NCBI GenBank assembly: GCA_052170315.1
Contig: JBQNAT010000010.1
Coordinates: 45,256 to 69,255 of the forward strand
Direction: 5' to 3'
DNA length: 24,000 nt
Source of the DNA: Sphaerochaeta sp.
Lineage (GTDB): Bacteria > Spirochaetota > Spirochaetia > Sphaerochaetales > Sphaerochaetaceae
Below the pieces are notes generated by a model. That model searched no databases. It was not told the origin of the DNA and worked only from the letters and a program-made list of their open reading frames with translations. The position numbers were made by a program, and so were the translations under genes. Position 1 is the stretch's first letter, and every line of letters starts with the position of its first letter. Shown in pieces: positions 1,407 through 22,112 of the stretch.

Positions 1407-1435
1407 TTGACAATAGTTGTCGTAAGTGATAAAAC
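1407..1435 (+). promoter_or_regulatory. Candidate sigma70-type promoter for the T-box operon (TTGACA - 17 nt - TAAAAC with upstream TG)
   Basis: TTGACA at 1407-1412, a 17-nt spacer, TGaTAAAAC at 1427-1435. A weaker alternative has -10 TATAAA at 1481-1486 with a poor -35 (TTCAGT, 1458-1463). No TSS data. Confidence 0.4.
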
Positions 1436-1481: not shown

Positions 1482-1500
1482 ATAAAGGCTTTGACGAAGA

Positions 1501-1758
1501 CGGAGCGGGAAGATAGCAAAAGCGAACTGGGTACGGTGTGAGCCAGCTGCGAAGGGCCTGTAAACCTATCACTTCCGAGCCGGAGAAAGAAAGCACGCTG
1601 TGTGAGTAGAGATCTCCCGTGACTGCCGCGTAAGAGCATAAGGCTTGTTGGAGCCTGAGGGGCGCGAAAGCGCAATTTGAGTGGTACCGCGGGTACATAT
1701 CACAGACAGATATGCGGCTCGTCTCAAGGAAAGCAGTCTTTGGGACGGGCTTTTTTTT
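1501..1758 (+). promoter_or_regulatory. T-box riboswitch leader, probable Ile (AUC) specifier, with antiterminator/terminator switch
   Basis: T-box consensus AAUUUGAGUGGUACCGCG at 1674-1691. Stem I base has a GA/K-turn-like motif (CGGAGCG 1501-1507 vs GAGCCG 1577-1582) and helix GGAAG 1508-1512 : CUUCC 1572-1576. The triplet AUC (1568-1570) followed by A1571 lies immediately 5' of that helix, the position of the specifier codon plus conserved purine in characterised T-boxes. Antiterminator: GAG 1679-1681:CUC 1718-1720 and CCGC 1687-1690:GCGG 1714-1717 flank a UGGUA bulge. Its 3' strand overlaps the terminator 5' arm. Confidence 0.85.
1717..1758 (+). terminator. Intrinsic terminator of the T-box expression platform
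   Basis: 5' arm GCUCGUCUCAAGG (1717-1729) pairs with 3' arm CUUUGGGACGGGC (1738-1750), including G-U wobbles, around an 8-nt loop. A U8 run follows at 1751-1758. Confidence 0.8.
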
Positions 1759-1775
1759 ATAGTCGGAGGGGTATC

Positions 1776-4037
1776 GTGGATACTACAAAAACGCAGCTTC
1801 TGGAAGTTGCAGCGCGAATCAGGGAAATGCGGGAAATTCTGAGCCTGTCTCAGGAGGAAATGGCGCATAAGACGGATTTAAGTCTTTCCGAATATCAGAC
1901 TTATGAAAGGGGCGAGTGTGATCTTCCGTTTTCTTTCATTCACAAATGCGCAATGGCGTTCGGTATTGATATTACCGACCTTCTTGAAGGACATTCCACA
2001 CGGCTCACTTCCTATACCGTCACAAGACGCGGCCACGGTCACCAGACTGCCAAGGAGATGGGCATAGACATCCAGAATCTGGCTCCAAAATTCAAAAACA
2101 AAATTGCCGAGCCCTACTGGGTTAAATATGACTACTCCGAGGAGCTTCAGGGCAAACCTATCCAGCTTCAGACTCATGCCGGTCAGGAATTTGACATAAT
2201 CATAGAGGGCTCTCTGCTGGTACAGGTGGGCCTTAATAAGGAAGTTCTGCATGAGGGCGACTGCATTTACTACAAGTCTTCCACACCCCACGGAATGATT
2301 GCCATTGAAGGCCGTGACTGCCTGTTTGTGGCTGTAGTCCTTCCGGGCGAGGACGAAAGCGGCGACTCAAGCATTGCCGCGTCCCTTGCTCCAGTTCCTT
2401 CTACCAACAAGCTTGTCGCCAACAAATTCATAGAGTGCGCAGAAGACAAAAACGGCAGCCTGCAGGCCGTAAAATACAAAAATACTGAATCTTTTAACTT
2501 TGCATACGACATTGTTGACGCAATCGCGGATAAATATCCCGATAAGCTTGCGATGATACACCTTGACATAAACAAGTCGGTAAGGCGTTTTACCTTTATG
2601 GACATGAAGAAGGAAAGCGCACGGGTTGCGAACTACTTTGCAGCCTTGGGAATTGGCAAGGGCGATAAGGTAATGCTTGTTTTAAAAAGGCATTATCAGT
2701 TCTGGCCTGCAATTATAGCCCTTCATAAAATAGGAGCCGTAGCCATACCTGCAACCTACCAGCTTAGAGAGCATGACTTTATTTACAGGTTCAATTCCGC
2801 AGGTGTAAAGGCTATAGTCTGCACCGCTTCCGGAGACTGCGCGGAGATAGTGGACAGGGTACAGAGTCAGTGTCCGACGCTGGAGATTAAGATGCTGGTA
2901 AACGGGACGCGTGAAGGCTGGAGGGATTTCAACAGGGAATACCCGATGTTCAAGAGCTCTTTCAGGCGCGGCCCGGATACTCCTTGCGGAAATGACAGCG
3001 CTCTTATGTTCTTCTCTTCCGGCACAACCGGCAATCCCAAGATGGTTGAGCACAGGCATACCTACGCGCTGGCGCACTATGTCACTGCAAAATACTGGCA
3101 CTGCTGCCGGCCTGACGGCCTTCACTTTACAATTTCGGATACGGGCTGGGGCAAGTCCCTGTGGGGCAAGCTTTACGGGCAGTGGATGTGCGAAGGAGCG
3201 GTTTTTGTCTATGACTTTGACCGCTTCCACGCGGACGATATCCTGCCTCTGTTCGCCCAATATCATATAACTACCTTCTGCGCCCCGCCCACGATGCTCA
3301 GGATGATGGTCAAGGAAGACCTTTCAAAATACGATTTCTCTTCCGTAAAGCACATGACTACTGCAGGCGAAGCGCTGAATCCTGAAGTAGGCAGTCAGTT
3401 CTATAAGGCTACGGGTCTTGAGATATGCGAAGGCTTCGGACAGACGGAGACAACGCTTACCGTCGCGAATTTCGGCGGCAATGTCAAAATCGGTTCAATG
3501 GGCAAGGCGTCTCCTCAGTACAGTGTAATGCTTGTTGATAGTGACGGACTTCCCGTGGCTCCGGGTGAAGTGGGCGAGATTGCGATAGATATCTCCGGCG
3601 GCGCCCCGATAGGTCTTTTCACGGAGTACTACAGGGATAAGGAAAAGACGTCCGAGGTAATGCGCGGCGGTCTGTACCATACCGGTGATACCGCATGGCA
3701 GGATGAGGACGGCTATTTTTTCTATGTTGGCCGCGTTGACGACATTATCAAGTCTTCCGGTTACAGGATAGGGCCTTTCGAGGTCGAGTCCGTAATAATG
3801 GAGCTTCCATATGTGCTTGAGTGCGGAGTTTCGGCTACTCCCGACCCTGTAAGAGGACAGGTTGTAAAGGCCTCTATAGTACTTACACGGGGTACGGAGC
3901 CCAGCGAAAAGCTCAAAACGGATATACAGGACTATGTGAAAACACATACTGCGCCGTACAAATACCCGCGTCAGGTGGTTTTCAGGGATGAACTTCCCAA
4001 GACCGTAAGCGGAAAAATAATCAGAAGCGCCCTTTAG
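1776..4037 (+). CDS. Tri-domain fusion: XRE-family HTH + cupin sensor domain + medium-chain (MACS/ACSM-like) AMP-forming acyl-CoA synthetase
   Basis: GTG at 1776 lies 6 nt after GGAGG (1765-1769) and just after the terminator; the ORF-track start at 1677 lies inside the T-box. HTH: LSLSQEEMAHKTDLSLSEYQTYERGE. Cupin: THAGQEFDIIIEG...GDCIYYKSSTPHG. ACS domain: FNFAYDIVD, FFSSGTTGNPKMVEH, EGFGQTETT, YHTGDTAWQDEDGYFFYVGRVDDIIKSSGYRIGPFEVES, PKTVSGKIIR. The frame is continuous, with no internal start or RBS at the junction. Confidence 0.85.
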   Translation: MDTTKTQLLEVAARIREMREILSLSQEEMAHKTDLSLSEYQTYERGECDLPFSFIHKCAMAFGIDITDLLEGHSTRLTSYTVTRRGHGHQTAKEMGIDIQNLAPKFKNKIAEPYWVKYDYSEELQGKPIQLQTHAGQEFDIIIEGSLLVQVGLNKEVLHEGDCIYYKSSTPHGMIAIEGRDCLFVAVVLPGEDESGDSSIAASLAPVPSTNKLVANKFIECAEDKNGSLQAVKYKNTESFNFAYDIVDAIADKYPDKLAMIHLDINKSVRRFTFMDMKKESARVANYFAALGIGKGDKVMLVLKRHYQFWPAIIALHKIGAVAIPATYQLREHDFIYRFNSAGVKAIVCTASGDCAEIVDRVQSQCPTLEIKMLVNGTREGWRDFNREYPMFKSSFRRGPDTPCGNDSALMFFSSGTTGNPKMVEHRHTYALAHYVTAKYWHCCRPDGLHFTISDTGWGKSLWGKLYGQWMCEGAVFVYDFDRFHADDILPLFAQYHITTFCAPPTMLRMMVKEDLSKYDFSSVKHMTTAGEALNPEVGSQFYKATGLEICEGFGQTETTLTVANFGGNVKIGSMGKASPQYSVMLVDSDGLPVAPGEVGEIAIDISGGAPIGLFTEYYRDKEKTSEVMRGGLYHTGDTAWQDEDGYFFYVGRVDDIIKSSGYRIGPFEVESVIMELPYVLECGVSATPDPVRGQVVKASIVLTRGTEPSEKLKTDIQDYVKTHTAPYKYPRQVVFRDELPKTVSGKIIRSAL

Positions 4038-4057
4038 GGCTTTTGACGGGAGTAAAA

Positions 4058-4849
4058 ATGAAGATTTCGTGCATTCAGATGGACATGAAATTTGCCTCAC
4101 CAAAAGAGAACTTCGAAAAAGCCGAAACGCTTATACGTAAGGCTGCTTCTTTCGGTCTCGATACGGTTCTGCTTCCCGAAACATGGAACGTCGGCTTTTT
4201 TCCAAGGGAAAACCTTTATGCCCTTGCGGACAGGGACGGAGCCGAAGTCCGGCGTGTTTTCTCCTCATTGGCAGAGGAACTTGGGATAAACATAGTCGCG
4301 GGAAGCGTAGCGAATATTAAGGACGGCGGAGTATACAACACAGCTCTTGTCTTTGACAGAAGCGGCAGGTGCGCTGCGGAGTATGATAAAACCCATCTTT
4401 TTTCACCTATGGATGAGGATAGGTACTTTAAAAAAGGAGAACATGCCTGTGTCTTTGAACTTGACGGGCGCAGGTGCGGCCTTATCATCTGTTATGATGT
4501 GCGTTTTCCTGAGTTTACAAGGACAATGGCGGTACAGGGCATTGACATTCTTTTCATGGTATCGCAGTGGCCTCTTGCAAGGGTTGCCCATCTTGATGCT
4601 CTTACAAAGGCAAGGGCAATAGAGAACCAGATGTTTGTTGTCTGCTGTAATTCGGCAGGAAAAGCGGGCGATACCGTTTACGGCGGAGCTTCTTCCATAA
4701 CCGACCCATGGGGAGTAACGATAGCTCATGCGGAAGGTCATGGTGAAGAAATTATAACGGCGGAATGTAATATGGACATTCTAAATGGAATAAGAAACAG
4801 CATAAACGTCTTCTTTGACAGAAGACCGGAACTGTACGGAGTAAACTGA
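4058..4849 (+). CDS. Carbon-nitrogen hydrolase (nitrilase superfamily), omega-amidase (YafV/MtnU/Nit2)-like
   Basis: ATG at 4058 lies 5 nt after GGGAG (4048-4052); the track's TTG at 4043 is less likely. Glu-Lys-Cys triad contexts: LPETWN, YDKTHLF, GLIICYDVRFPE. About 263 aa, typical of small Nit-branch amidases. Confidence 0.8.
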   Translation: MKISCIQMDMKFASPKENFEKAETLIRKAASFGLDTVLLPETWNVGFFPRENLYALADRDGAEVRRVFSSLAEELGINIVAGSVANIKDGGVYNTALVFDRSGRCAAEYDKTHLFSPMDEDRYFKKGEHACVFELDGRRCGLIICYDVRFPEFTRTMAVQGIDILFMVSQWPLARVAHLDALTKARAIENQMFVVCCNSAGKAGDTVYGGASSITDPWGVTIAHAEGHGEEIITAECNMDILNGIRNSINVFFDRRPELYGVN

Positions 4850-4873
4850 TTTTTTTAGGCAAAGGAGATATTT

Positions 4874-5968
4874 ATGGACTACAATTTTCCGGTTACAAGG
4901 ACAACACATCCCAGGCCTAGGCCTCAGGACCAGACAAAGCTGGGATTCGCGAAGTATTTCACGGACCACATGTTCTGCATGGATTGGGATGAAGGACAGG
5001 GCTGGCACGACGGAAGAGTTGTTCCTCACGAGGCTATCCTGATAGAGCCCGCGTCCTGCGTTCTTCACTATGCGCAGATGATGTTTGAAGGTATGAAGGC
5101 ATACAGGACGGCAAAAGGAGAAATCCAGATTTTCAGGCCCGACATGAATGTCAGAAGGATGGCAAGAACCAACGAAAGAATGTGCATTCCGGAGCTTCCG
5201 GGAGACATACTTCTTGCAGGTATAAAGGCCGTCATCAAGGAAGACATTGACTGGGTGCCTACGGCTCAGGGAACGGCGCTTTATATCAGGCCGTTTATCT
5301 TCGGAGATGAGGTTTCCTTCTCCGTTCTTCCTGCAAAGCATTACAGATTCATGATAATCCTTTCTCCTACAGGCTCGTACTATGCTGCAAACGACGGAGG
5401 ACTTTCCGCGACAAGAATATATGTGCAGGATAAGTACATCCGTGCGGCGAAGGGCGGCACAGGCTATGCCAAGGTGGGCGGCAACTACGGCGGAGGCATG
5501 AGAGCCAGCCAGGACGCTATGAAATACGACTGCAAAGATGTACTATGGCTTGATGCGGCGGAGCATAAATATGTAGAAGAAATCGGAACCTCCAACGCCT
5601 TCTTCGTTCTTAACGATGAAGTTATAACAGCGCCGCTGGATTCCGAGACAATTCTTCCGGGCATCACAAGAGATTCTGTAATAAGGTTGCTGAAGAAGTG
5701 GGGAGTGAAGGTAACGGAAAGAAAGCTTTCCATTGATGAAATAATGGAAGGAAGCCGAAGCGGTGCCCTTAAGGAAATATTCGCTTCCGGTACCGCCGCT
5801 GTAATTTCCCCTATAGGCACACTTTGCGTAAAGGGCAGCGACTACACTGTAGGTGACGGGAAAGTGGGGCCGATTGCCCAAAAGCTTTACGACAACATTT
5901 ACGGTATGCAGACCGGTAAGATTGAAGACTACATGGGCTGGATTTACAAACTGGGGCTTAAAGCGTGA
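4874..5968 (+). CDS. ilvE: Branched-chain amino acid aminotransferase (fold-type IV, long ~360-aa form)
   Basis: RBS AAAGGAGA lies upstream of ATG 4874. N-terminal LGFAKYFTDHMF signature, PLP-lysine context GGTGYAKVGGNYG, length 364 aa. Confidence 0.9.
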   Translation: MDYNFPVTRTTHPRPRPQDQTKLGFAKYFTDHMFCMDWDEGQGWHDGRVVPHEAILIEPASCVLHYAQMMFEGMKAYRTAKGEIQIFRPDMNVRRMARTNERMCIPELPGDILLAGIKAVIKEDIDWVPTAQGTALYIRPFIFGDEVSFSVLPAKHYRFMIILSPTGSYYAANDGGLSATRIYVQDKYIRAAKGGTGYAKVGGNYGGGMRASQDAMKYDCKDVLWLDAAEHKYVEEIGTSNAFFVLNDEVITAPLDSETILPGITRDSVIRLLKKWGVKVTERKLSIDEIMEGSRSGALKEIFASGTAAVISPIGTLCVKGSDYTVGDGKVGPIAQKLYDNIYGMQTGKIEDYMGWIYKLGLKA

Positions 5969-6609
5969 AGAGGCTTTCACTTTTCTGCGGACACTACGGC
6001 AGCGGGAAAACCAACCTTGCCGTGAATTACGCTCTTTATCTTCGGAAGCTGGGTTTGGAGGTAACAATAGCCGATTTGGATATTGTTAATCCGTATTTCA
6101 GGTCAAAGGACAGTTTTGAGACCCTTGAAGCCGAGGGCGTTAAGGTCATTGCCCTGCCGTTCGCAAACAGCAGCGTGGACCTTCCCGCCCTGCCAAGCGG
6201 GGCCTATGCTCTTGTTCAGGATAAAAGCCGCTATGCCGTTTTGGACATAGGCGGCGATGACAGAGGAGCATATGCCCTTGGGCGTTTTGTTCCTTATATC
6301 CTTGAAGAAAACAACTATGACATGTTCTATGTTGTCAACTTCTACAGACCTCTTACATCAAACGCAAAAGAGGCTATGGAAGTGATGAGGGAAATTGAAG
6401 GCGCCTGCGGACTTGAGTTTACAGGTATCATCAACAATTCCAATCTTGGGGCGGAAACCACGGCGGAGAAGATACGCTTTACCTTTCCTGAGGCGGAACG
6501 GCTTTGCGGTCTTTCGGGACTTCCGCTTACCGCGGTAACGGCAGAAGAGAGCGCGGCGGAAGGCGCAATGGTGAAAATAAAGCTTCAAAAGCGTCCCTTT
6601 GAGGTCTGA
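5965..6609 (+). CDS. Uncharacterised P-loop NTPase (SIMIBI/MinD-ParA-CobQ-like ATP-binding protein)
   Basis: GTG start overlaps the ilvE stop (GTGA, 4-nt overlap), implying translational coupling. Walker A GHYGSGKT at residues 9-16; Walker B-like VLDIGGDD. No recognisable catalytic domain beyond the NTPase fold. Confidence 0.65.
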   Translation: MKRLSLFCGHYGSGKTNLAVNYALYLRKLGLEVTIADLDIVNPYFRSKDSFETLEAEGVKVIALPFANSSVDLPALPSGAYALVQDKSRYAVLDIGGDDRGAYALGRFVPYILEENNYDMFYVVNFYRPLTSNAKEAMEVMREIEGACGLEFTGIINNSNLGAETTAEKIRFTFPEAERLCGLSGLPLTAVTAEESAAEGAMVKIKLQKRPFEV

Positions 6610-6655
6610 GAGACGGAAATTAAAGGAATTTGATTCTTCAAAAGAGGTGAGCTGT

Positions 6656-6862
6656 ATGGCGAAAGTAACATTCAACGAAGACATTTGTAAGGGGTGCGGA
6701 CTATGTATTGACGCATGTCCCCGGCACATACTCGCGCTTGATAAAAACAAGATTAACAGGAAGGGACATAACCCTGCCGTGATTACCGAGCAGTCTAAAT
6801 GCATAGCCTGCGCCTTTTGCGCTGTAATGTGTCCTGACTGTGTGATAACCGTGGAGAAGTGA
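6656..6862 (+). CDS. 2x[4Fe-4S] ferredoxin-type delta subunit of 2-oxoacid:ferredoxin oxidoreductase
   Basis: ATG 6656 is preceded by AGAGGTGA; the track start at 6599 is rejected. Two CxxCxxCxxxCP motifs (CKGCGLCIDACP, CIACAFCAVMCP). 68 aa, ending 1 nt before the alpha subunit. Confidence 0.85.
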   Translation: MAKVTFNEDICKGCGLCIDACPRHILALDKNKINRKGHNPAVITEQSKCIACAFCAVMCPDCVITVEK

Positions 6863-6863
6863 T

Positions 6864-7931
6864 ATGACAGAAAAAGTTTTGATGAAAGGAAACGAAGCCA
6901 TTGCCGAAGCCGCCCTTAGAGCGGGTTGCCGTCATTATTTCGGTTATCCGATAACTCCGCAGACGGAGCTTACAGCCTATATGGCAAAGCGTCTTCCAAA
7001 GTTGGAAGGCGGTGTTTTCCTTCAGGCGGAAAGCGAGGTCAGCGCAATAAACATGGTTTACGGCGCATCCGGCGCGGGAAAGAGAGTCATGACAAGCTCA
7101 TCTTCCCCGGGGATATCGCTTAAACAGGAAGGCATTTCCTATATTGCCGGAGCGGATCTTCCCGCAGTGATAGTAAACGTCCAAAGAGGCGGTCCGGGTC
7201 TGGGAGGAATCCAGCCGTCACAGTCCGACTATTTCCAGGCAACCAAGGGCGGCGGACACGGAGACTATCATCTTATAGTACTGACTCCAAGCTCCGTTCA
7301 GGAAATGGCTGATTTGACAAGCCTTGCCTTTGATCTTGCAGATAAGTACCGCTGTCCGACAATGCTGCTTGCAGACGGGACAATGGGACAGATGATGGAG
7401 CCGGTACTGCTTCCCGAACCTCATTGCTCAGCTGTTGCCAAGCCGTGGGCGCTTACCGGAACCGGAATGAAGAGAGAGCACAACGTCATAAATTCACTTT
7501 ATCTTGTACCTGAGGTGCTGGAAAAAATGAACCTTGAACGCTTCGAACGCTATAAAGAAATTGAGGAAAACGAAGTCCGCTTTGAAAGCTATCTTATGAA
7601 TGACGCGGACTACTGCCTTGTAGCCTTCGGTATTGCTGCCCGTGTAGCCAAGAATGCCATAACAATTATGAGAAAAGACGGTATTAAGGCAGGTCTGATA
7701 AGACCTATTACTGTTTGGCCGTTCCCGAAGAAGGCTATCAGTGAAGCAGCAAAAAAAGTCAAAGGCTTTGTAAGTGTTGAGCTTTCAATGGGGCAGATGA
7801 TAGAAGACGTCAAGCTTGCGGAAGAGTGCCTTCGTCCCGTAGCTCTATGCAGAAGAGTCGGCGGAATGATTCCCGGCGTTGACCAGATAATTGACGTAAC
7901 AAAAAAACTGGCGGAAGGAGGCGTGCGATAA
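6864..7931 (+). CDS. 2-oxoacid:ferredoxin oxidoreductase alpha subunit (VorB/KorA-type)
   Basis: N-terminus KGNEAIAEAALRAGCRHYFGYPITPQTE is characteristic of OFOR alpha subunits. 355 aa, in a delta-alpha-beta-gamma set. Confidence 0.9.
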   Translation: MTEKVLMKGNEAIAEAALRAGCRHYFGYPITPQTELTAYMAKRLPKLEGGVFLQAESEVSAINMVYGASGAGKRVMTSSSSPGISLKQEGISYIAGADLPAVIVNVQRGGPGLGGIQPSQSDYFQATKGGGHGDYHLIVLTPSSVQEMADLTSLAFDLADKYRCPTMLLADGTMGQMMEPVLLPEPHCSAVAKPWALTGTGMKREHNVINSLYLVPEVLEKMNLERFERYKEIEENEVRFESYLMNDADYCLVAFGIAARVAKNAITIMRKDGIKAGLIRPITVWPFPKKAISEAAKKVKGFVSVELSMGQMIEDVKLAEECLRPVALCRRVGGMIPGVDQIIDVTKKLAEGGVR

Positions 7932-8683
7932 TGGCCGTTGTTTTTCAGAAACCGAAAAGTCTTACATCCAAAGAGATGCATTACTGCCCGGGCTGCCCTC
8001 ACGGGATTATCCACAGGCTTGTGGCGGAGGCTATTGACAGCCTTGGCATAGAAGGAAAAACCGTAGGCGTTGCCCCTGTAGGCTGTGCGGTTCTTGCATA
8101 CGATTATTTTACCTGCGATATGGTTGAAGCGGCTCACGGAAGAGCCCCGGCAGTTGCGACGGGTCTTAAAAGAGCCTTGCCTGAAAATATTGTTTTCACT
8201 TATCAGGGCGACGGGGATCTTGCCTCAATAGGTATGGCTGAAACAGTCCACGCGGCTACCAGAAACGAGAATATCACAATCATTTTCGTTAATAACGCCA
8301 TTTACGGAATGACAGGCGGCCAGATGGCGCCCACTTCGCTTCCGGGTCAGATAACTCAGACATCTCCATACGGACGTGACGTGAAAACCGCCGGTTATCC
8401 GATACGTGTATGCGAGATGCTTGCCGCCCTTGATGCTCCTTACTATATTGAGCGCGTTGCCGTGAACAGCGTGAAGAACGTCCTGAAAGCAAAAAAAGCC
8501 GTTGAGAAGGCCTTCCGCAATCAGGTCGAGGGCAAGGGCTTCTCTCTGATAGAGCTGATTTCGGCCTGTCCTACAAACTGGGGACTTACGCCTGCAAAGG
8601 CGCTTGAATGGGTAAAAGATAAGATGATTCCTTACTATCCGCTTGGGGTTTTCAGGGACAAAGATACGGAGGCGGCGAAATGA
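7931..8683 (+). CDS. 2-oxoacid:ferredoxin oxidoreductase beta subunit (TPP-binding)
   Basis: Start overlaps the alpha stop by 1 nt (TAATG). HYCPGCPHG cysteine motif and TPP-binding GDGD...NNAIYGMTGGQ. Confidence 0.9.
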   Translation: MAVVFQKPKSLTSKEMHYCPGCPHGIIHRLVAEAIDSLGIEGKTVGVAPVGCAVLAYDYFTCDMVEAAHGRAPAVATGLKRALPENIVFTYQGDGDLASIGMAETVHAATRNENITIIFVNNAIYGMTGGQMAPTSLPGQITQTSPYGRDVKTAGYPIRVCEMLAALDAPYYIERVAVNSVKNVLKAKKAVEKAFRNQVEGKGFSLIELISACPTNWGLTPAKALEWVKDKMIPYYPLGVFRDKDTEAAK

Positions 8684-9210
8684 CTACACAGATTCTTATA
8701 GCAGGCTTCGGAGGACAGGGTATTCTGTTTTCAGGAAAACTTCTTGCGTACAAGGCGCTTTCAGAAGGAAAAGAGCTTTCATGGCTGCCTTCCTACGGAC
8801 CTGAAATGAGAGGCGGCACAGCCTCCTGCTCCGTAACGGTAAGCGATGAACCTGTAGGTTCTCCTATTATTGACCATCCTGATGTGCTTATAGTTATGAA
8901 CCTTCCGTCTTTAGACAGATATGAGGACTCAGTAAAGCCCGGAGGCATGATTTTCGTGGATTCCAGCCTTGTTGAAAGAAAGGTGAAGAGAACAGACGTA
9001 AAAGCTTTTTACATACCCGCAACCAGGCTTGCTCAGGATATGGGCGCAGGAAACCTTGCCAACATAGTCCTTCTTGGAAAAGTCATGAAAGACTGTTCTG
9101 CGGTTTCAGGAAACGGACTTGAAGAGGCTCTTCGCAAGGTTGTTTCCGCAAAGCACCCCGAAATGTATGAAATTAATCTTAAGGCCATTGAAACCGGGTA
9201 TAGCTACTGA
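8680..9210 (+). CDS. 2-oxoacid:ferredoxin oxidoreductase gamma subunit
   Basis: ATGA overlap with the beta stop. ILIAGFGGQGILFSGKLLA N-terminus is typical of OFOR gamma domains. 176 aa. Confidence 0.9.
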   Translation: MTTQILIAGFGGQGILFSGKLLAYKALSEGKELSWLPSYGPEMRGGTASCSVTVSDEPVGSPIIDHPDVLIVMNLPSLDRYEDSVKPGGMIFVDSSLVERKVKRTDVKAFYIPATRLAQDMGAGNLANIVLLGKVMKDCSAVSGNGLEEALRKVVSAKHPEMYEINLKAIETGYSY

Positions 9211-9248: not shown

Positions 9249-10874
9249 GTGAGTTTTAATGTTGAAGATGCGATGAAACTTCCTTCCATGAAGGGCGCCA
9301 GGCTTGCCGCGGGACAGAACGGCGTTAAATCAAACATTCTGGCCGTTACGGTTTTTGAATACAAAGGTTCAAAAGACCTTCAGAACAGGTTCATGGCTTT
9401 AAATTCCGGAAAACTTAACGGTAAGCTTGTTCTTGCAAGCTTCGCGTCAATGGAGAGAGATACGGAGCTTCAGCGAAGATGTCTGGAGTATATGGCAAAA
9501 GGGGGAGCTTCCGCTCTTGTCCTTTATTATGTAGGCGTTATTCTTAAAGAAGTAGGCAGAAGCCTTAAAGATACTGCGGATTCCCTGTCTCTGCCCGTTA
9601 TTGTAATGCCTGAAAACAAGCTGGATATTGGTTATGACGCTCTTATTTCGGAAGTATCGGAATCCGTGCTGACAGCGGGCGCAGATTATAACGAAAATCT
9701 TGCCACGGAAATAATCGGTCAGGTTTCAAAGCTGCCTGCCGACAAACAGACAGTAGATTCGGTTTTAAATCTTCTAAGTTCAAAGCTTAATGCCGGTATA
9801 ATACTTACAGACGGCAGTCTTAATAATCTTGGGGAGTCCTTTAAAGGCGGAATTTCTGTTCAGGGTGTCCTGAACGAAGAAAATGTCCCTCATCATATAA
9901 AACGCAAAAAGGCTTTCGCCCCGGTTCCCGGCAGTTTTATATGGTATGCCCCTATACATGACAGAGGCGTTGAGCCCATGAGGCTCTTCCTTATTGAAGA
10001 CGGAAATTCTCTTAATGAGATGCGTGTAGATATGGCCCGCGCCGCAGTTCAGCTTGCTGTGGAACTTTGGAGCAACAGCCACAGCGAGGTTTTGACATCG
10101 GAACTTGTTAAAGCAATCCTCAATGACGAACCAATAAGGATGAGAAGGCTGAGCGAAGTGCTGCGCATTGATATCAAGTCCATCCACAACTCCTGGTTCA
10201 TACGCTGTACCGACGGAAGAAGTCATTTTTCCTATGAAATGATAAAGGCTGTCAGGGATGTTATGAACAATCTTGATTCCGAGATACTTCTGGAATCCTA
10301 CAGACCCACGCCGGGCAATTCGGATGACCTGATAATGTTTTTCAGAAATCCGCTGGATGCAAAGCTTCTGAATAACTGCGCGCGCTCTATAATTGAAAAT
10401 CTCCACGGCCTTGGCTGCAATCATGTTTATCTTACCATGCTGGATTACAAGTTCACTACCGCAGATGTGAGAAATGCCTTTTCCATATGGAATGAGAACG
10501 AGGCTAAGGCCAGAACCGTTTTCCCCGCTCTTGAAATATTTCACGAATCTGAAATAGAGCTTGCAAGACAGTGCGATGCGATAATAAAGCTTGGGGAAGC
10601 AAGCATAGCTTCCGCAACCGACTGTCTGTACGCGCTTGAAGAGCGACACGGCTCGGAAGAGTTTTTAAAAACGCTTGAAGTTTACTTCCTTGACGCGGAC
10701 ATGAACATGCAGAAGGCCTCCGAGATTCTGGGTGTTCATAAAAATACAATAAAGTACAGGATAAATATTGTATGCGACGCGCTTGGTCATTCCGTAAATA
10801 ATCCTGTTACAACCTCTCGTCTTACCATAGCGCTTGCAATCAGGCGTCTGCTTGATAAGGCAGGCGCAATTTAA
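9249..10874 (+). CDS. PucR/CdaR-family transcriptional regulator
   Basis: GTG 9249 lies 6 nt after GGAGG (9238-9242). N-terminal PucR-like domain (LPSMKGARLAAGQNGVKSNILAVTVFE). C-terminal PucR-type HTH (MQKASEILGVHKNTIKYRINIVCDALG). Confidence 0.8.
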   Translation: MSFNVEDAMKLPSMKGARLAAGQNGVKSNILAVTVFEYKGSKDLQNRFMALNSGKLNGKLVLASFASMERDTELQRRCLEYMAKGGASALVLYYVGVILKEVGRSLKDTADSLSLPVIVMPENKLDIGYDALISEVSESVLTAGADYNENLATEIIGQVSKLPADKQTVDSVLNLLSSKLNAGIILTDGSLNNLGESFKGGISVQGVLNEENVPHHIKRKKAFAPVPGSFIWYAPIHDRGVEPMRLFLIEDGNSLNEMRVDMARAAVQLAVELWSNSHSEVLTSELVKAILNDEPIRMRRLSEVLRIDIKSIHNSWFIRCTDGRSHFSYEMIKAVRDVMNNLDSEILLESYRPTPGNSDDLIMFFRNPLDAKLLNNCARSIIENLHGLGCNHVYLTMLDYKFTTADVRNAFSIWNENEAKARTVFPALEIFHESEIELARQCDAIIKLGEASIASATDCLYALEERHGSEEFLKTLEVYFLDADMNMQKASEILGVHKNTIKYRINIVCDALGHSVNNPVTTSRLTIALAIRRLLDKAGAI

Positions 10875-10889
10875 AAATAAGGAGAAAAT

Positions 10890-11378
10890 ATGGACCATTT
10901 AAAATATCTGCTTGCTGCCAACGAAACCGCACGAAAGGCCCGTGAGAACGGGAATACTCCGTTCGGAGCCGTGCTTGTAGACGAAAACGGAAACATAGTA
11001 ATGGAGCAGGGCAACGCGGAACACGACCTGCATGATGCCACTGCCCACGCGGAGCGTTTTCTTGCTTCCCGCGCAAGCCGGACATTCAGCCGTGAGTTTC
11101 TGTGGAAATGTACGCTTTATACAACATTTGAGCCCTGCTGTATGTGTACAGGTGCCATATACTGGGCCAATATCGGAAGGATAGTATATGGTGTTACAGA
11201 AGAGAAGCTCCTTGAGCTGACAGGCTCCGATGATAAAAATCCTACTTTCAACATTTCCTGCAGGACAATAATCGCGGCAGGTCAGAAACCTATAGAAGTT
11301 CTTGGCCCGTTTCCGGAGATAGGCTACGCCATTGAAGAAGTGCATGCAGGATTCTGGAATCCTGAAAAACCGGAATAG
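10890..11378 (+). CDS. CMP/dCMP-type zinc deaminase (cytosine/guanine/nucleoside deaminase-like, FCY1-like)
   Basis: RBS AAGGAGA. Zinc motifs HAE (TAHAERF) and PCxxC (TLYTTFEPCCMCTGAIYWANIGRIVYG), the latter closely resembling the yeast-type cytosine deaminase core. 162 aa. Confidence 0.8.
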   Translation: MDHLKYLLAANETARKARENGNTPFGAVLVDENGNIVMEQGNAEHDLHDATAHAERFLASRASRTFSREFLWKCTLYTTFEPCCMCTGAIYWANIGRIVYGVTEEKLLELTGSDDKNPTFNISCRTIIAAGQKPIEVLGPFPEIGYAIEEVHAGFWNPEKPE

Positions 11379-18303: not shown

Positions 18304-18394
18304 CAAAACAGGGTAGGAAGGATGTGAAGGGAAACCGGTCTGCGTCATGCCTGCGGGACATGCCCTGCCTATTCGCTCCATGGGAGGAGTATAT

Positions 18395-19105
18395 ATGAAA
18401 AAGACACTCACGGTGTTACTGCTTGTTCTGATTCTTATTCCGTCGTTCTGTTTTGCGAAGGAACTTTCCGGTATCAAAGATAAAATTCTTGAGCCCATTG
18501 CCGCTGTTCAGCTTGGCGCGGGGTACGATTTTTTTACACTCAAAGGAAAATATGACAAACATGAATTGACATCAAACAGGATGAGCGCCCTGGGAATAAA
18601 CCTTGCCGTGACGCTGGATCTTTCAAAAATAGACAACTTTATGAAGGAAGGCTGGTTCGGTTATTTTGACATTGGTACAGGTTTCTCCGGCAAGATTCAT
18701 TTTGCCGGTTCTGATTACAGCAGTAAAACTGCCCCCAAACTTTCAAACGCGACGGACTTCAAAACTCATCTTGTTATAATGAAGCGTTTTAACTTCCAAA
18801 TTCCTCTTGACGTTTATCTTGGCGGAGGTCTTGCGTACAACAGTTTCACTGGAAATACAAAAACCGATACCTCAAACGTGAAACTTTCCGCAAAAGCCTG
18901 GGGTATAGCGCTTTACGCTGAAGGGGACTATAAGTTCACTAAGCATCTTGCTATATGCGTTTCCCTTAATCCCGATATCTCGTTTATAACAAAACTTCAG
19001 AGAAAGAGCCGCGATAATACCGGATATGTTACTATAAAAAAACATATTTCCATGGGTTTCGGTTTATGTGTTACCGCGAAGGCCTCTATAAAGTACATTT
19101 TCTAA
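18395..19105 (+). CDS. Secreted small beta-barrel-like outer-membrane protein (porin/OmpW-like), hypothetical
   Basis: ATG 18395 follows GGGAGGAG; the track start at 18347 is rejected. Signal peptide MKKTLTVLLLVLILIPSFCFA|KE. Alternating hydrophobic/aromatic pattern and C-terminal ...IKYIF (terminal Phe), typical of OM beta-barrels. Confidence 0.5.
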   Translation: MKKTLTVLLLVLILIPSFCFAKELSGIKDKILEPIAAVQLGAGYDFFTLKGKYDKHELTSNRMSALGINLAVTLDLSKIDNFMKEGWFGYFDIGTGFSGKIHFAGSDYSSKTAPKLSNATDFKTHLVIMKRFNFQIPLDVYLGGGLAYNSFTGNTKTDTSNVKLSAKAWGIALYAEGDYKFTKHLAICVSLNPDISFITKLQRKSRDNTGYVTIKKHISMGFGLCVTAKASIKYIF

Positions 19106-20379: not shown

Positions 20380-20799
20380 ATGAAAAAAGCATTTATGGTT
20401 TTAGGTATGTCGGTTTTACTGGCATTGCTGGGATTCACACTTATCGGCTGCTCACGCGCGGGCAATACGGATGAAATAACCAAAATGGAATACAAACATA
20501 TTTCGCAGGAAGAAGCTGCGCGCATTATGGCCAATGAAAAAGATATAATCATAGTTGATGTAAGGCGCCCGGATGAGTATGCATCCGGCCATATACCCGG
20601 CGCTATAAATATCCCAAACGAAACCATAGGTTCCGCGTCTATTCCTCAGCTGCCGGATAAAAACCGGAAAATACTTGTTTACTGCAGAAGCGGAGCAAGA
20701 AGCAGGCAGGCTTCTTCAAAACTTGCAGACATGGGTTATTCAAATATTTTGGAATTCGGCGGCATAATTACATGGACCGGCGATATAGTTACGGACTAA
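20380..20799 (+). CDS. Rhodanese-domain lipoprotein (sulfurtransferase-like)
   Basis: Lipobox L-I-G-C in MKKAFMVLGMSVLLALLGFTLIGCS. Rhodanese active-site loop YCRSGARS and GHIPGAINIP motif. 139 aa. Confidence 0.8.
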   Translation: MKKAFMVLGMSVLLALLGFTLIGCSRAGNTDEITKMEYKHISQEEAARIMANEKDIIIVDVRRPDEYASGHIPGAINIPNETIGSASIPQLPDKNRKILVYCRSGARSRQASSKLADMGYSNILEFGGIITWTGDIVTD

Positions 20800-22112
20800 A
20801 GGTCAAACCCGAACTTCATACCAATGAAAAATGACATGCAGAAAGGCTTGAAAATAAAATCTTCAGAGTGATAGCTGTCTCCTCGGACATAAGAGGTTAT
20901 CAGATTTGAATCCGGATAACAGCCGATATCAAGAGCCGCTTCAAGCATGAAGTTTATCCAGTCAAAGCATATGAGACCTTCCGGAAGCAGCGTAGTGCCA
21001 ATACGTATCTGCGTAAACGGCGTAAAAATTGCGTCTCTTGAAATCCTTGGGCTTCCGTCCGTGTTAATAATGTCTATCTGCCATTTTGCAAGTCCGAAGT
21101 CCATTTCACAGTAGGGTCTGAAAATCCATAGTTCCTGAAAACGGTAGCGATAGCCTGCAGCAAGCTGCAAATGGTTTCTCTGTACTCGGATATTTGGGTC
21201 ATGGCTCTTTTTCGGATTGGGTATGCCGGATGTGTAACGTGAAATTATACACACGGACGAATACCCGGAAAAAGGCAGTTCAAGGTAGTTTGAGTGAAAC
21301 CGGAAGCTCTGTATCTTCTGCCTGCCGGAAGAAAGGCTTACATCGGATTTCTTCCATGTGGGTTTTCTGAAAAAGGACATGACGTCAACGCCTACGGTTC
21401 CGTAGCCGAATGTCCCGTCAAGTTCCCTCTCATAGTTGAATGTGATAGCTCCGAAATCAATGTACGATGAAATTTTCCACTTTGTATCTTTATTCAGAGC
21501 TATCCCGAAGGCTTTGTAGAACATTGAAAGCTGAAAGCCGAAAATAAATTCACGGCTGTAGATAACACTTGCCCCGCCGCTGAAGGAAAGACCCTTTACC
21601 GGAGAATAGTTTGCTTCCATTCCAAGCTCGGAAAGGGGATAAAATTCAGGAATTGATATGTACGGAACGTGTACCGAAGCCACACGTATATATTTGTGAT
21701 AGTTGTTCTGAACAGCATCAAGCCCCATATAGCCTCTGAAGCCAAGGCCCGCGGAGGTATCAAGGTATAGTGAAAAATTCCTTATGTTATACAGAGCAAT
21801 TTTATAAGATGTTTCCAGCATAAGCTCGTCATACCTTGTTTTTGCTATCCTGTTTGTATAAGCGCTTAAATCAGCTTTTAAACTGAAATTCCTGTATGTG
21901 AAAATACCGACAAAACTGAAGGTGTGATGGTCATCGTCATTTTTTGCTATACCAAGAGTAAAGTTATCGTTGCCGTTAGCCCAGATAAGGCGATGGCTCA
22001 TCACCGAATGCTTTCCCATATCGTCCGCGCTTGACAGAGAAGTCGCAAAAACGAAGCAGTCCAAGGCGGCAAAGATAAGCAGAATTTGAAGGACAAATGA
22101 TATTTTCTTCAT
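20796..22112 (-). CDS. Secreted hypothetical protein, probable large outer-membrane beta-barrel
   Basis: Signal peptide MKKISFVLQILLIFAALDCFVFA. Aromatic-rich alternating pattern throughout, no recognisable enzymatic motif. 438 aa. The stop overlaps the convergent rhodanese stop by 4 nt. Confidence 0.45.
   Translation of the reverse strand: MKKISFVLQILLIFAALDCFVFATSLSSADDMGKHSVMSHRLIWANGNDNFTLGIAKNDDDHHTFSFVGIFTYRNFSLKADLSAYTNRIAKTRYDELMLETSYKIALYNIRNFSLYLDTSAGLGFRGYMGLDAVQNNYHKYIRVASVHVPYISIPEFYPLSELGMEANYSPVKGLSFSGGASVIYSREFIFGFQLSMFYKAFGIALNKDTKWKISSYIDFGAITFNYERELDGTFGYGTVGVDVMSFFRKPTWKKSDVSLSSGRQKIQSFRFHSNYLELPFSGYSSVCIISRYTSGIPNPKKSHDPNIRVQRNHLQLAAGYRYRFQELWIFRPYCEMDFGLAKWQIDIINTDGSPRISRDAIFTPFTQIRIGTTLLPEGLICFDWINFMLEAALDIGCYPDSNLITSYVRGDSYHSEDFIFKPFCMSFFIGMKFGFDL

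Follow-up and report, generated by a model that had tools for sequence, protein, structure and literature searches.

A 24,000-nucleotide stretch of Sphaerochaeta sp. DNA (contig JBQNAT010000010.1; hereafter, the window) carries eight co-directional genes at 1776-9210, placed 3′ of a T-box leader. This gene block, which we describe here as a candidate operon for making isoleucine from a branched-chain fatty acid, opens with HCL1, a fusion of helix-turn-helix (HTH) and cupin domains to an acyl-CoA ligase. It continues with a CN-hydrolase (CNH), a branched-chain aminotransferase (BCAT) and a P-loop NTPase, and ends with the delta, alpha, beta and gamma subunits of a 2-oxoacid:ferredoxin oxidoreductase (OFOR; Table 1). 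Exact protein matches in databases are annotated ‘MAG: ... [Sphaerochaeta sp.]’, and the source is a metagenome-assembled genome (MAG) of a Sphaerochaeta-type spirochaete from the rumen or gut.

Table 1. Features of the operon, its leader and the gene upstream, in window positions (aa, amino acids; RBS, ribosome-binding site; PLP, pyridoxal phosphate; TPP, thiamine pyrophosphate).
Feature	Position	Strand	Evidence and remarks
TIM-barrel (AP_endonuc_2)-ANL ligase fusion, C-terminal 459 of 818 aa	2..1381	+	Pfam, NCBIfam, gene calls in locus L081
Candidate sigma-70-type promoter	1407..1435	+	-35 TTGACA 1407-1412, 17-nt spacer, TGn extended -10 TAAAAC 1430-1435; read by eye
T-box leader RF00230, transcription-attenuation type	1482..1729	+	Local covariance-model scan
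Intrinsic terminator of the T-box	1716..1759	+	15-bp stem 1716-1751 (7 GC), then U8; 5′ arm overlaps the 3′ arm of the antiterminator
HCL1, 753-aa fusion, predicted 2-methylbutyrate-CoA ligase	1776..4037	+	GTG start, GGAGG RBS; Pfam, NCBIfam, 3ETC match
HCL1 domains			XRE-type HTH aa 13-72; cupin aa 129-187; AMP-forming short/medium-chain acyl-CoA synthetase aa 230-753
CNH, Nit2/YafV-like branch, candidate omega-amidase	4058..4849	+	Pfam CN_hydrolase; E41-K111-C145 triad
BCAT, class IV, IlvE type II	4874..5968	+	Aminotran_4; IlvE cutoffs passed; PLP-lysine motif
SIMIBI-class P-loop NTPase	5965..6609	+	Walker A GHYGSGKT; weak Pfam CbiA/ParA; AF2 and Foldseek
OFOR delta, 68 aa, 2x[4Fe-4S] ferredoxin-like	6656..6862	+	Fer4; two CxxCxxCxxxCP motifs
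OFOR alpha, VorB family	6864..7931	+	POR_N, PFOR_II; NF005507
OFOR beta, TPP-binding	7931..8683	+	TPP_enzyme_C; Pfam, NCBIfam
OFOR gamma	8680..9210	+	POR; Pfam, NCBIfam

The eight genes are tightly packed. From HCL1 to gamma the intergenic gaps measure, in order, 20, 24, -4, 46, 1, -1 and -4 nucleotides (nt), every non-overlapping start is preceded by a Shine-Dalgarno-like sequence, and promoter-like and terminator-like sites inside the operon are no more numerous than chance would predict. Coordinates were taken from the table of open reading frames (ORFs), the junction sequences and independent gene calls for the same genomic region (locus L081). All three match the preliminary description of this DNA, which had reported gaps of at most 46 nt and overlaps at 5965, 7931 and 8680; its domain assignments for the eight genes were upheld by Pfam and NCBIfam, on which ours rest.

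The leader displays all elements expected of a T-box. In a local scan with a permissive threshold, the full RF00230 model (positions 1-219) aligned to 1482-1729 with 49.3 bits (E 8.6e-10). The specifier, AUC (Ile), occupies 1568-1570 and is followed by A1571 and then by CUUC, which pairs with GAAG to form the Stem I closing helix. Further downstream lies the T-box sequence, GAGUGGUACCGCG, at 1679-1691, with the UGGUACC bulge at 1682-1688. When folded with its downstream arm, the RNA adopts a 15-bp terminator trailed by U8 (minimum free energy -37.7 kcal/mol, z = -4.3, equalled by 0/200 shuffles); when folded without the 3′ arm of the terminator, it adopts a canonical antiterminator with the 7-nt UGGUACC bulge. 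The anatomy is complete: specifier, T-box sequence, antiterminator and terminator are all present.

Upstream of the T-box, a promoter scan did not list the candidate promoter site, whose last -10 base is not T. Between the putative -10 and the T-box start we noticed a perfect 10-bp inverted repeat, AATGTTAAAC-N-GTTTAACATT, at 1444-1481. As an operator for the fused HTH domain this repeat was rejected: no related species, not even the closest spirochaetes, has it in its leaders, and it is probably not a conserved operator.

To place the operon in context, we compared it with its relatives. A search of one genome per species returned 583 relatives of the fusion protein, and the best 80 loci were compared; their sources are MAGs from the rumen, herbivore gut and human gut, assigned to Sphaerochaetaceae and to many Clostridia (labelled Oscillospirales, Christensenellales and Lachnospiraceae). 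Synteny was counted in the 47 loci whose sequence runs on for at least 6.5 kb past the final ligase gene. An OFOR follows on the same strand in 40/47, the P-loop gene stands directly upstream of delta in each of these 40, a BCAT is present in 37, and 23 loci carry two tandem copies of the fusion ligase. A separate T-box lies about 100 nt upstream of each ligase copy. The preliminary description had proposed looking elsewhere for this gene order with an upstream T-box, and it does recur, in rumen and gut Sphaerochaetaceae as well as in Clostridia. The typical Clostridia order is T-box(Leu)-LeuA-like-TIM-ANL-T-box(Ile)-HCL1-T-box(Val)-HCL2-[CNH]-BCAT-P-loop-OFOR, such that Ile, Val and Leu T-box units are all joined to one BCAT-P-loop-OFOR block. 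The flanking genes are unrelated and variable, and the block is therefore sharply bounded. We found no canonical ilv or leuBCD genes beside the block in the flanks of the compared loci.

Upon examining the leaders, we observed that the specifier follows the class of the gene behind it. Every one of the 74 alignable leaders of orthologues of the window ligase carries AUC; the specifier column is invariant, and the neighbouring bases vary. This invariance supports the Ile T-box with AUC specifier that the preliminary description had assigned. Leaders of a paralogous ligase clade are Val-type without exception (40/40; GUA in 39 and GUC in 1). A third set, 28 CUC (Leu) leaders (9 found by motif and 19 by profile scan), precedes a divergent LeuA-like gene, which is followed by a fusion of a TIM barrel to an ANL ligase. 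In alignments to the covariance model, AUC, GUA and CUC fall on one and the same Rfam model position. The reading frame of the specifier is fixed: shifted by -1, the Ile class would include a base that varies, and shifted by +1, the Val class would read the stop codon UAG. When 108 full-length ligases were placed in a neighbour-joining tree, the Ile and Val groups formed clean clades (74/75 and 32/33 terminals, respectively), and the two odd terminals are one misaligned leader and the GUC case.

The leaders differ in several smaller respects. Throughout loci L001-L080, Ile- and Val-class leaders uniformly have GAGUGGUACCGCG as their T-box sequence, that is, GAGUGG in place of the canonical GGGUGG. 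GGGUGG is retained in the Leu class, most leaders of which have ACCGUGG instead of ACCGCG. The base 3′ of the specifier is C, not the usual purine, in 29/74 Ile-class leaders (L011-L080).

The arrangement of sensors speaks to the direction in which the pathway runs. Genes switched on by T-boxes serve to increase the availability of the cognate aminoacyl-tRNA, and AMP-forming ligases are effectively irreversible. Three branched-chain amino acid (BCAA) sensors on one BCAT-OFOR core are what would be expected of a biosynthetic or salvage module and are hard to explain by catabolism. A catabolic operon would convert BCAAs to branched fatty acids through BCAT, an oxidative OFOR and release of the acid. 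The OFOR reaction is reversible, and the usual oxidative route of proteolytic anaerobes consists of BCAT and a 2-oxoisovalerate:ferredoxin oxidoreductase (VOR), but it would be counter-productive for the cell to induce breakdown of an amino acid when the tRNA for that amino acid is uncharged. Moreover, an AMP-forming ligase can neither conserve energy nor run from acyl-CoA to acid, and the block contains no ptb/buk or ADP-forming synthetase. We consider this catabolic role very improbable.

The ligase domain of HCL1 gives a first indication of the substrate. Pfam recognizes AMP-binding (208.6 bits) and AMP-binding_C (73.6 bits) in HCL1, along with HTH_19 and Cupin_2. By far the closest solved relative of the ligase domain is MacsMa (PDB 3ETC; 617 bits, 53% identity over 514 residues), with which the YHTGD motif and the pocket tryptophan of HCL1 align. 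MacsMa prefers 2-methylbutyrate (PMC10455477), and MbcS is selective for 2-methylbutyrate and isobutyrate, with isovalerate a poor substrate (PMC10026030). The poor use of isovalerate by MbcS fits an arrangement in which the HCL family serves the Ile and Val arms and another ligase serves the Leu arm.

Comparison of the two ligase clades narrows this further. Twelve positions separate them, when a position is called discriminating if it is at least 90% conserved within each clade and different between the two. Only one lies inside the ligase domain: residue 459, glycine in the Ile clade and alanine in the Val clade, within the motif DTGW-G/A-K..W and 4 residues before the pocket tryptophan, W463. 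By a 23-residue offset derived from the YHTGD motif, G459 aligns with Gly255 of MacsMa, which likewise precedes Trp259 by 4 residues. Position 459 probably corresponds to the acyl-pocket position of the Acs enzymes (AcsMt Ile312, SeAcs Val310), going by their DVGW-V/I-TGH motif and by the 4-residue spacing to Trp259. Glycine in the Ile class and alanine in the Val class would be the steric trend expected for a C5 as compared with a C4 acid. Of the reference residues, MacsMa Trp259 is a critical acyl-pocket residue (PMC10455477) and AcsMt Ile312 also belongs to the acyl pocket (PMC3477478). Three things lead us to predict that HCL1 prefers 2-methylbutyrate: its 53% identity to MacsMa, the Ile specificity of its T-box, and the G/A459 pattern. 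Isobutyrate is the predicted substrate of the Val-class ligase.

The same residue bears on another way to make isoleucine, in which the ligase would activate propionate, the OFOR would act as a 2-oxobutyrate synthase on propionyl-CoA and CO2, and IlvBN, IlvC and IlvD encoded elsewhere would complete isoleucine with BCAT, bypassing threonine deaminase. Control by an Ile T-box fits such a route equally well, propionate is abundant in the rumen, isoleucine is made from propionate in some anaerobes, and the sequence of the OFOR does not define its substrate. However, the residue at 459 is smaller in the Ile class than in the Val class, implying a substrate larger than isobutyrate and arguing against propionate. 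In addition, the Val T-box ligase uses the same OFOR, and isobutyrate is the sole equivalent short precursor of valine; therefore, the OFOR must accept a branched C4 acyl-CoA. MacsMa itself can adenylate propionate but is inefficient with it at the CoA step (PMC10455477). Taken with the points in its favor, these observations make the propionate route unlikely.

Downstream of the ligase, BCAT and the OFOR are the enzymes predicted to convert the acyl-CoA to an amino acid. BCAT exceeds the cutoffs of two NCBIfam models (NF009897, 444.3 bits against 307; TIGR01123, 359.3 bits against 250) and contains the PLP-lysine motif GTGYAKVGGNY. OFOR alpha scores 542.2 bits on NF005507 (VorB), above the cutoff of 399; a PDB search returned no close characterised or solved relative of this subunit. 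From genomic context, we predict that the OFOR acts on branched 2-oxoacids and acyl-CoAs in the reductive direction. Public annotation of these proteins is generic, as the preliminary description had forecast: they are labelled ‘AMP-binding protein’, ‘VorB’, ‘2-oxoglutarate ferredoxin oxidoreductase subunit delta’ and ‘nucleotide-binding protein’.

Our preferred reading, to which we assign a probability of roughly 0.75, is that the operon would be induced by isoleucine starvation and make isoleucine from exogenous 2-methylbutyrate. The biosynthetic direction, which the preliminary description had already favored, draws support from the match between specifier and ligase paralogue, the substrate preferences of MacsMa and MbcS, the G/A459 pattern and the origin of the related loci in rumen and gut MAGs. 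The RNA elements are directly visible in the leader, and by analogy to the established T-box mechanism they would work as follows. The AUC specifier would be bound by the anticodon of uncharged tRNA-Ile(GAU), and the UGGU of the bulge would pair with the free NCCA end of that tRNA. This pairing would stabilise the antiterminator over the 1716-1751 terminator and allow transcription of the eight genes. The ligase domain of HCL1 would then convert 2-methylbutyrate and ATP to 2-methylbutyryl-CoA, with release of AMP plus PPi; the four-subunit, VorB-type OFOR would carboxylate 2-methylbutyryl-CoA with CO2 and reduced ferredoxin to 2-oxo-3-methylvalerate, with abundant gut CO2 presumably feeding this step; and the class IV BCAT would transaminate the product to isoleucine. 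In the related Clostridia, the ligase behind the Val T-box and the unit behind the Leu T-box would feed the same BCAT-OFOR block.

Several observations weigh against isoleucine synthesis from 2-methylbutyrate. The window T-box, at 49 bits, falls short of the RF00230 gathering score of 93, and a whole-window Rfam scan reported no family at its gathering score; homologous leaders of relatives reach 68.7-123.7 bits, two of them above 93. Among the OFOR subunits, only alpha passes the cutoff of a named family; beta, gamma and delta contain the expected domains and stay under the equivalog cutoffs. Homology does not help to name the OFOR substrate, as the PDB relatives are generic 2-oxoacid or 2-oxoglutarate enzymes and thus uninformative. 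The best NCBIfam model for HCL1 is MbcS, with 428.9 bits, under the equivalog cutoff of 850, which makes HCL1, as judged by family models, a relative of MbcS and not an MbcS equivalog. In 6 loci, a T-box(Ile)-ligase unit stands alone and is followed by unrelated genes. Lastly, in locus L029 (672-8170) an HTH-cupin-ligase copy without a T-box neighbours a BKD-type dehydrogenase complex, which as a setting would suit the supply of acyl-CoA or lipid primers better. The lone ligases and the L029 copy indicate that the ligase family is not confined to this pathway and that its product can serve other ends.

Two side observations attach to these points. Spirochaete leaders score lower on RF00230 (49-69 bits) than clostridial leaders (84-124 bits). 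In L029, the ligase copy starts about 25 nt after a preceding ANL gene, and BKD-like E2, E3 and fused E1 genes come after it.

The family assignment, the T-box-less copy and the monocistronic units are also what would recommend an MbcS-like role, in which the operon would provide branched acyl-CoA as primers of branched-chain fatty acids in the membrane, turning to exogenous 2-methylbutyrate to spare isoleucine during shortage, with BCAT and OFOR running oxidatively at other times; MbcS itself is a lipid-primer enzyme (PMC10026030). Under isoleucine starvation, however, co-induced oxidative BCAT and OFOR would drain isoleucine. Convergence of three sensors does not fit lipid-primer supply well, and amino-acid supply is better indicated by the presence of Val and Leu T-boxes and of a LeuA-like gene. 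T-boxes, moreover, are not known to control lipid-primer genes. For these reasons we regard a lipid-primer role for the operon as quite unlikely.

The operon contains three parts whose contributions are less apparent. The first is the P-loop NTPase, which, judging by the 40/40 loci, appears to be an obligatory partner of this OFOR. It matches no NCBIfam model, and a PDB sequence search returned only weak Walker-A matches. Its AF2 model (pLDDT 83) lies nearest to the G domains of SRP54 and FtsY in Foldseek (TM ~0.6, 13-21% identity). We considered a NifH/CooC-like Fe-S ATPase or a NifH-like ATP-driven electron donor. Across 53 homologues, however, cysteine occurs at the three positions where the window protein has one in 35/53, 29/53 and 4/53 sequences, respectively, and none is conserved. 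The lack of a conserved cysteine, together with the generic SIMIBI/SRP-GTPase fold, led us to reject a NifH-like reductase. Speculatively, the protein could help in assembly or activation of the OFOR.

The second part, CNH, scores 177.7 bits on its Pfam model with the triad intact; its PDB relatives are 3p8k, 2w1v and 1f89. It does not qualify as an equivalog of the YafV-type omega-amidases (NF007757, 130.3 bits against a cutoff of 249). CNH and BCAT type vary together: 15 loci have CNH and a BCAT at least 75% identical to that of the window, and 21 loci without CNH have another BCAT (46-50% identity), with one exception. An attractive role for CNH would be that of an omega-amidase pulling a glutamine-dependent transamination, in which case it might clear a by-product such as 2-oxoglutaramate. 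Couples of a glutamine transaminase and an omega-amidase, such as Nit2 and MtnE-MtnU in methionine salvage, likewise place a Nit-branch CN-hydrolase next to an aminotransferase; here the partner differs, being a class IV BCAT. Class IV BCATs are not known to use glutamine. That CNH goes with one BCAT type may instead be due to common descent of a single operon variant.

The third part is the HTH-cupin module. It contains, in its HTH and pre-cupin region (HCL residues 8-114; window 1776-2120), 11/12 of the residues that discriminate the Ile and Val clades, which suggests a ligand or DNA target specific to each class. Alone, the module gives weak matches to XRE regulators and PuuR-type cupins. 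It might sense an acid or an amino acid, although this is speculative. Taking these parts together, we tentatively put forward, as a possibility that we hold less likely than not to apply in full, a modular regulon of rumen and gut anaerobes in which Leu, Ile and Val T-boxes serially gate substrate-specific ligases that feed a shared reductive OFOR-BCAT. In such a regulon the HTH-cupin module would add a second control, by substrate availability or end-product feedback, and the OFOR would need its dedicated, hitherto unrecognised SIMIBI NTPase to carboxylate.

In the spirochaete, the Leu arm may be represented just upstream of the operon. The second ANL ligase, which had been noted earlier as lying outside the Ile T-box, is confirmed as the C-terminus of the 818-aa fusion, the TIM barrel of which is xylose-isomerase-like. 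Beyond the window, a LeuA-like gene precedes this fusion (228 bits, against a LeuA cutoff of 532). The pair (L081 1567-5417) lies directly upstream of the operon without a T-box, and its counterpart in Clostridia stands behind the CUC T-box. The LeuA-like/TIM-ANL pair may thus be the Leu arm of the same system, with isovalerate as a possible substrate. Across phyla, the window proteins are 65-86% identical to those of Clostridia, which suggests that the spirochaete acquired the whole block, riboswitch included, by horizontal transfer.

The predicted chemistry has long been known. Reductive carboxylation dates back to work of the 1960s, and it has been clear for some 60 years that rumen bacteria which degrade fibre either depend on or incorporate branched-chain volatile fatty acids, the ‘isoacids’ used as feed additives. 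According to work cited in PMC2812497, reductive carboxylation of 2-methylbutyrate is an accepted isoleucine route in rumen anaerobes and the probable one of a rumen methanogen. The classical labelling work, cited there for Methanobrevibacter ruminantium, shares predicted chemistry and habitat with the operon; it defined fluxes and not genes, whereas we describe a gene block with paralogous ligases, a P-loop partner and T-box control.

Each element of the block has a familiar counterpart from which it departs. Bacillota T-boxes of BCAA and aminoacyl-tRNA synthetase genes share the specifier loop, the UGGN bulge, the terminator and induction by the uncharged cognate tRNA, and a Leu T-box controls the ilv-leu operon of Bacillus subtilis. 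By contrast, the T-boxes described here would govern salvage of fatty acids and not de novo ilv synthesis, occur in a spirochaete host, have GAGUGG instead of GGGUGG in the Ile and Val classes and come in series of up to three (Leu, Ile, Val) in one co-directional block. HCL1 and MacsMa of Methanosarcina acetivorans are both AMP-forming ANL ligases with YHTGD, the pocket tryptophan and a glycine before it; the N-terminal XRE-HTH and cupin domains of HCL1 are lacking in MacsMa and in MbcS of Staphylococcus aureus. Moreover, HCL1 is predicted to serve amino-acid synthesis, unlike MbcS with its role in lipid primers. In VORs and other four-subunit OFORs the same delta, alpha, beta and gamma subunits occur, as do the TPP and Fe-S motifs. 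A catabolic role is ascribed to the characterised VORs; the OFOR described here is predicted to be reductive, and a SIMIBI NTPase gene accompanies it in each of the 40 loci.

In open-access full-text literature we found no paper that links T-boxes with VOR, a branched-acid ligase or isoacids, and none that describes this set of genes, its three T-box classes, the fused HTH-cupin ligase or the NTPase tied to the OFOR; such a lack of reports does not prove novelty. Pathway and riboswitch class are known, and the gene module, its regulatory logic and its accessory parts appear to be undescribed. Most likely, the block comprises the genes for a pathway known only biochemically. Genes for conversion of isoacids to amino acids lie outside standard annotation, and the block offers a searchable marker by which organisms of rumen and gut able to make isoleucine, valine and leucine from 2-methylbutyrate, isobutyrate and possibly isovalerate could be predicted from their genomes. 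Glycine or alanine at one pocket-side position would amount to a natural experiment in ligase specificity, and the reach of the T-box regulon would widen to take in a salvage pathway and a spirochaete as host. Two parts merit biochemistry: the OFOR-linked NTPase and the enzyme-fused HTH-cupin domain.

Elsewhere in the window, a 252-aa ORF (18347-19105, + strand) and a 438-aa ORF (20796-22112, - strand) have no Pfam match. Closer to the operon, a gene for a PucR-family regulator (541 aa) and a cytidine/dCMP-deaminase-like gene occupy 9249-11378, beginning 38 nt after gamma, with no terminator-like site between gamma and the regulator gene. The pair recurs in the near-identical strains L081-L083 and is absent from the loci of other species. 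It lies outside the conserved module and, in this genome, may be co-transcribed with the operon.

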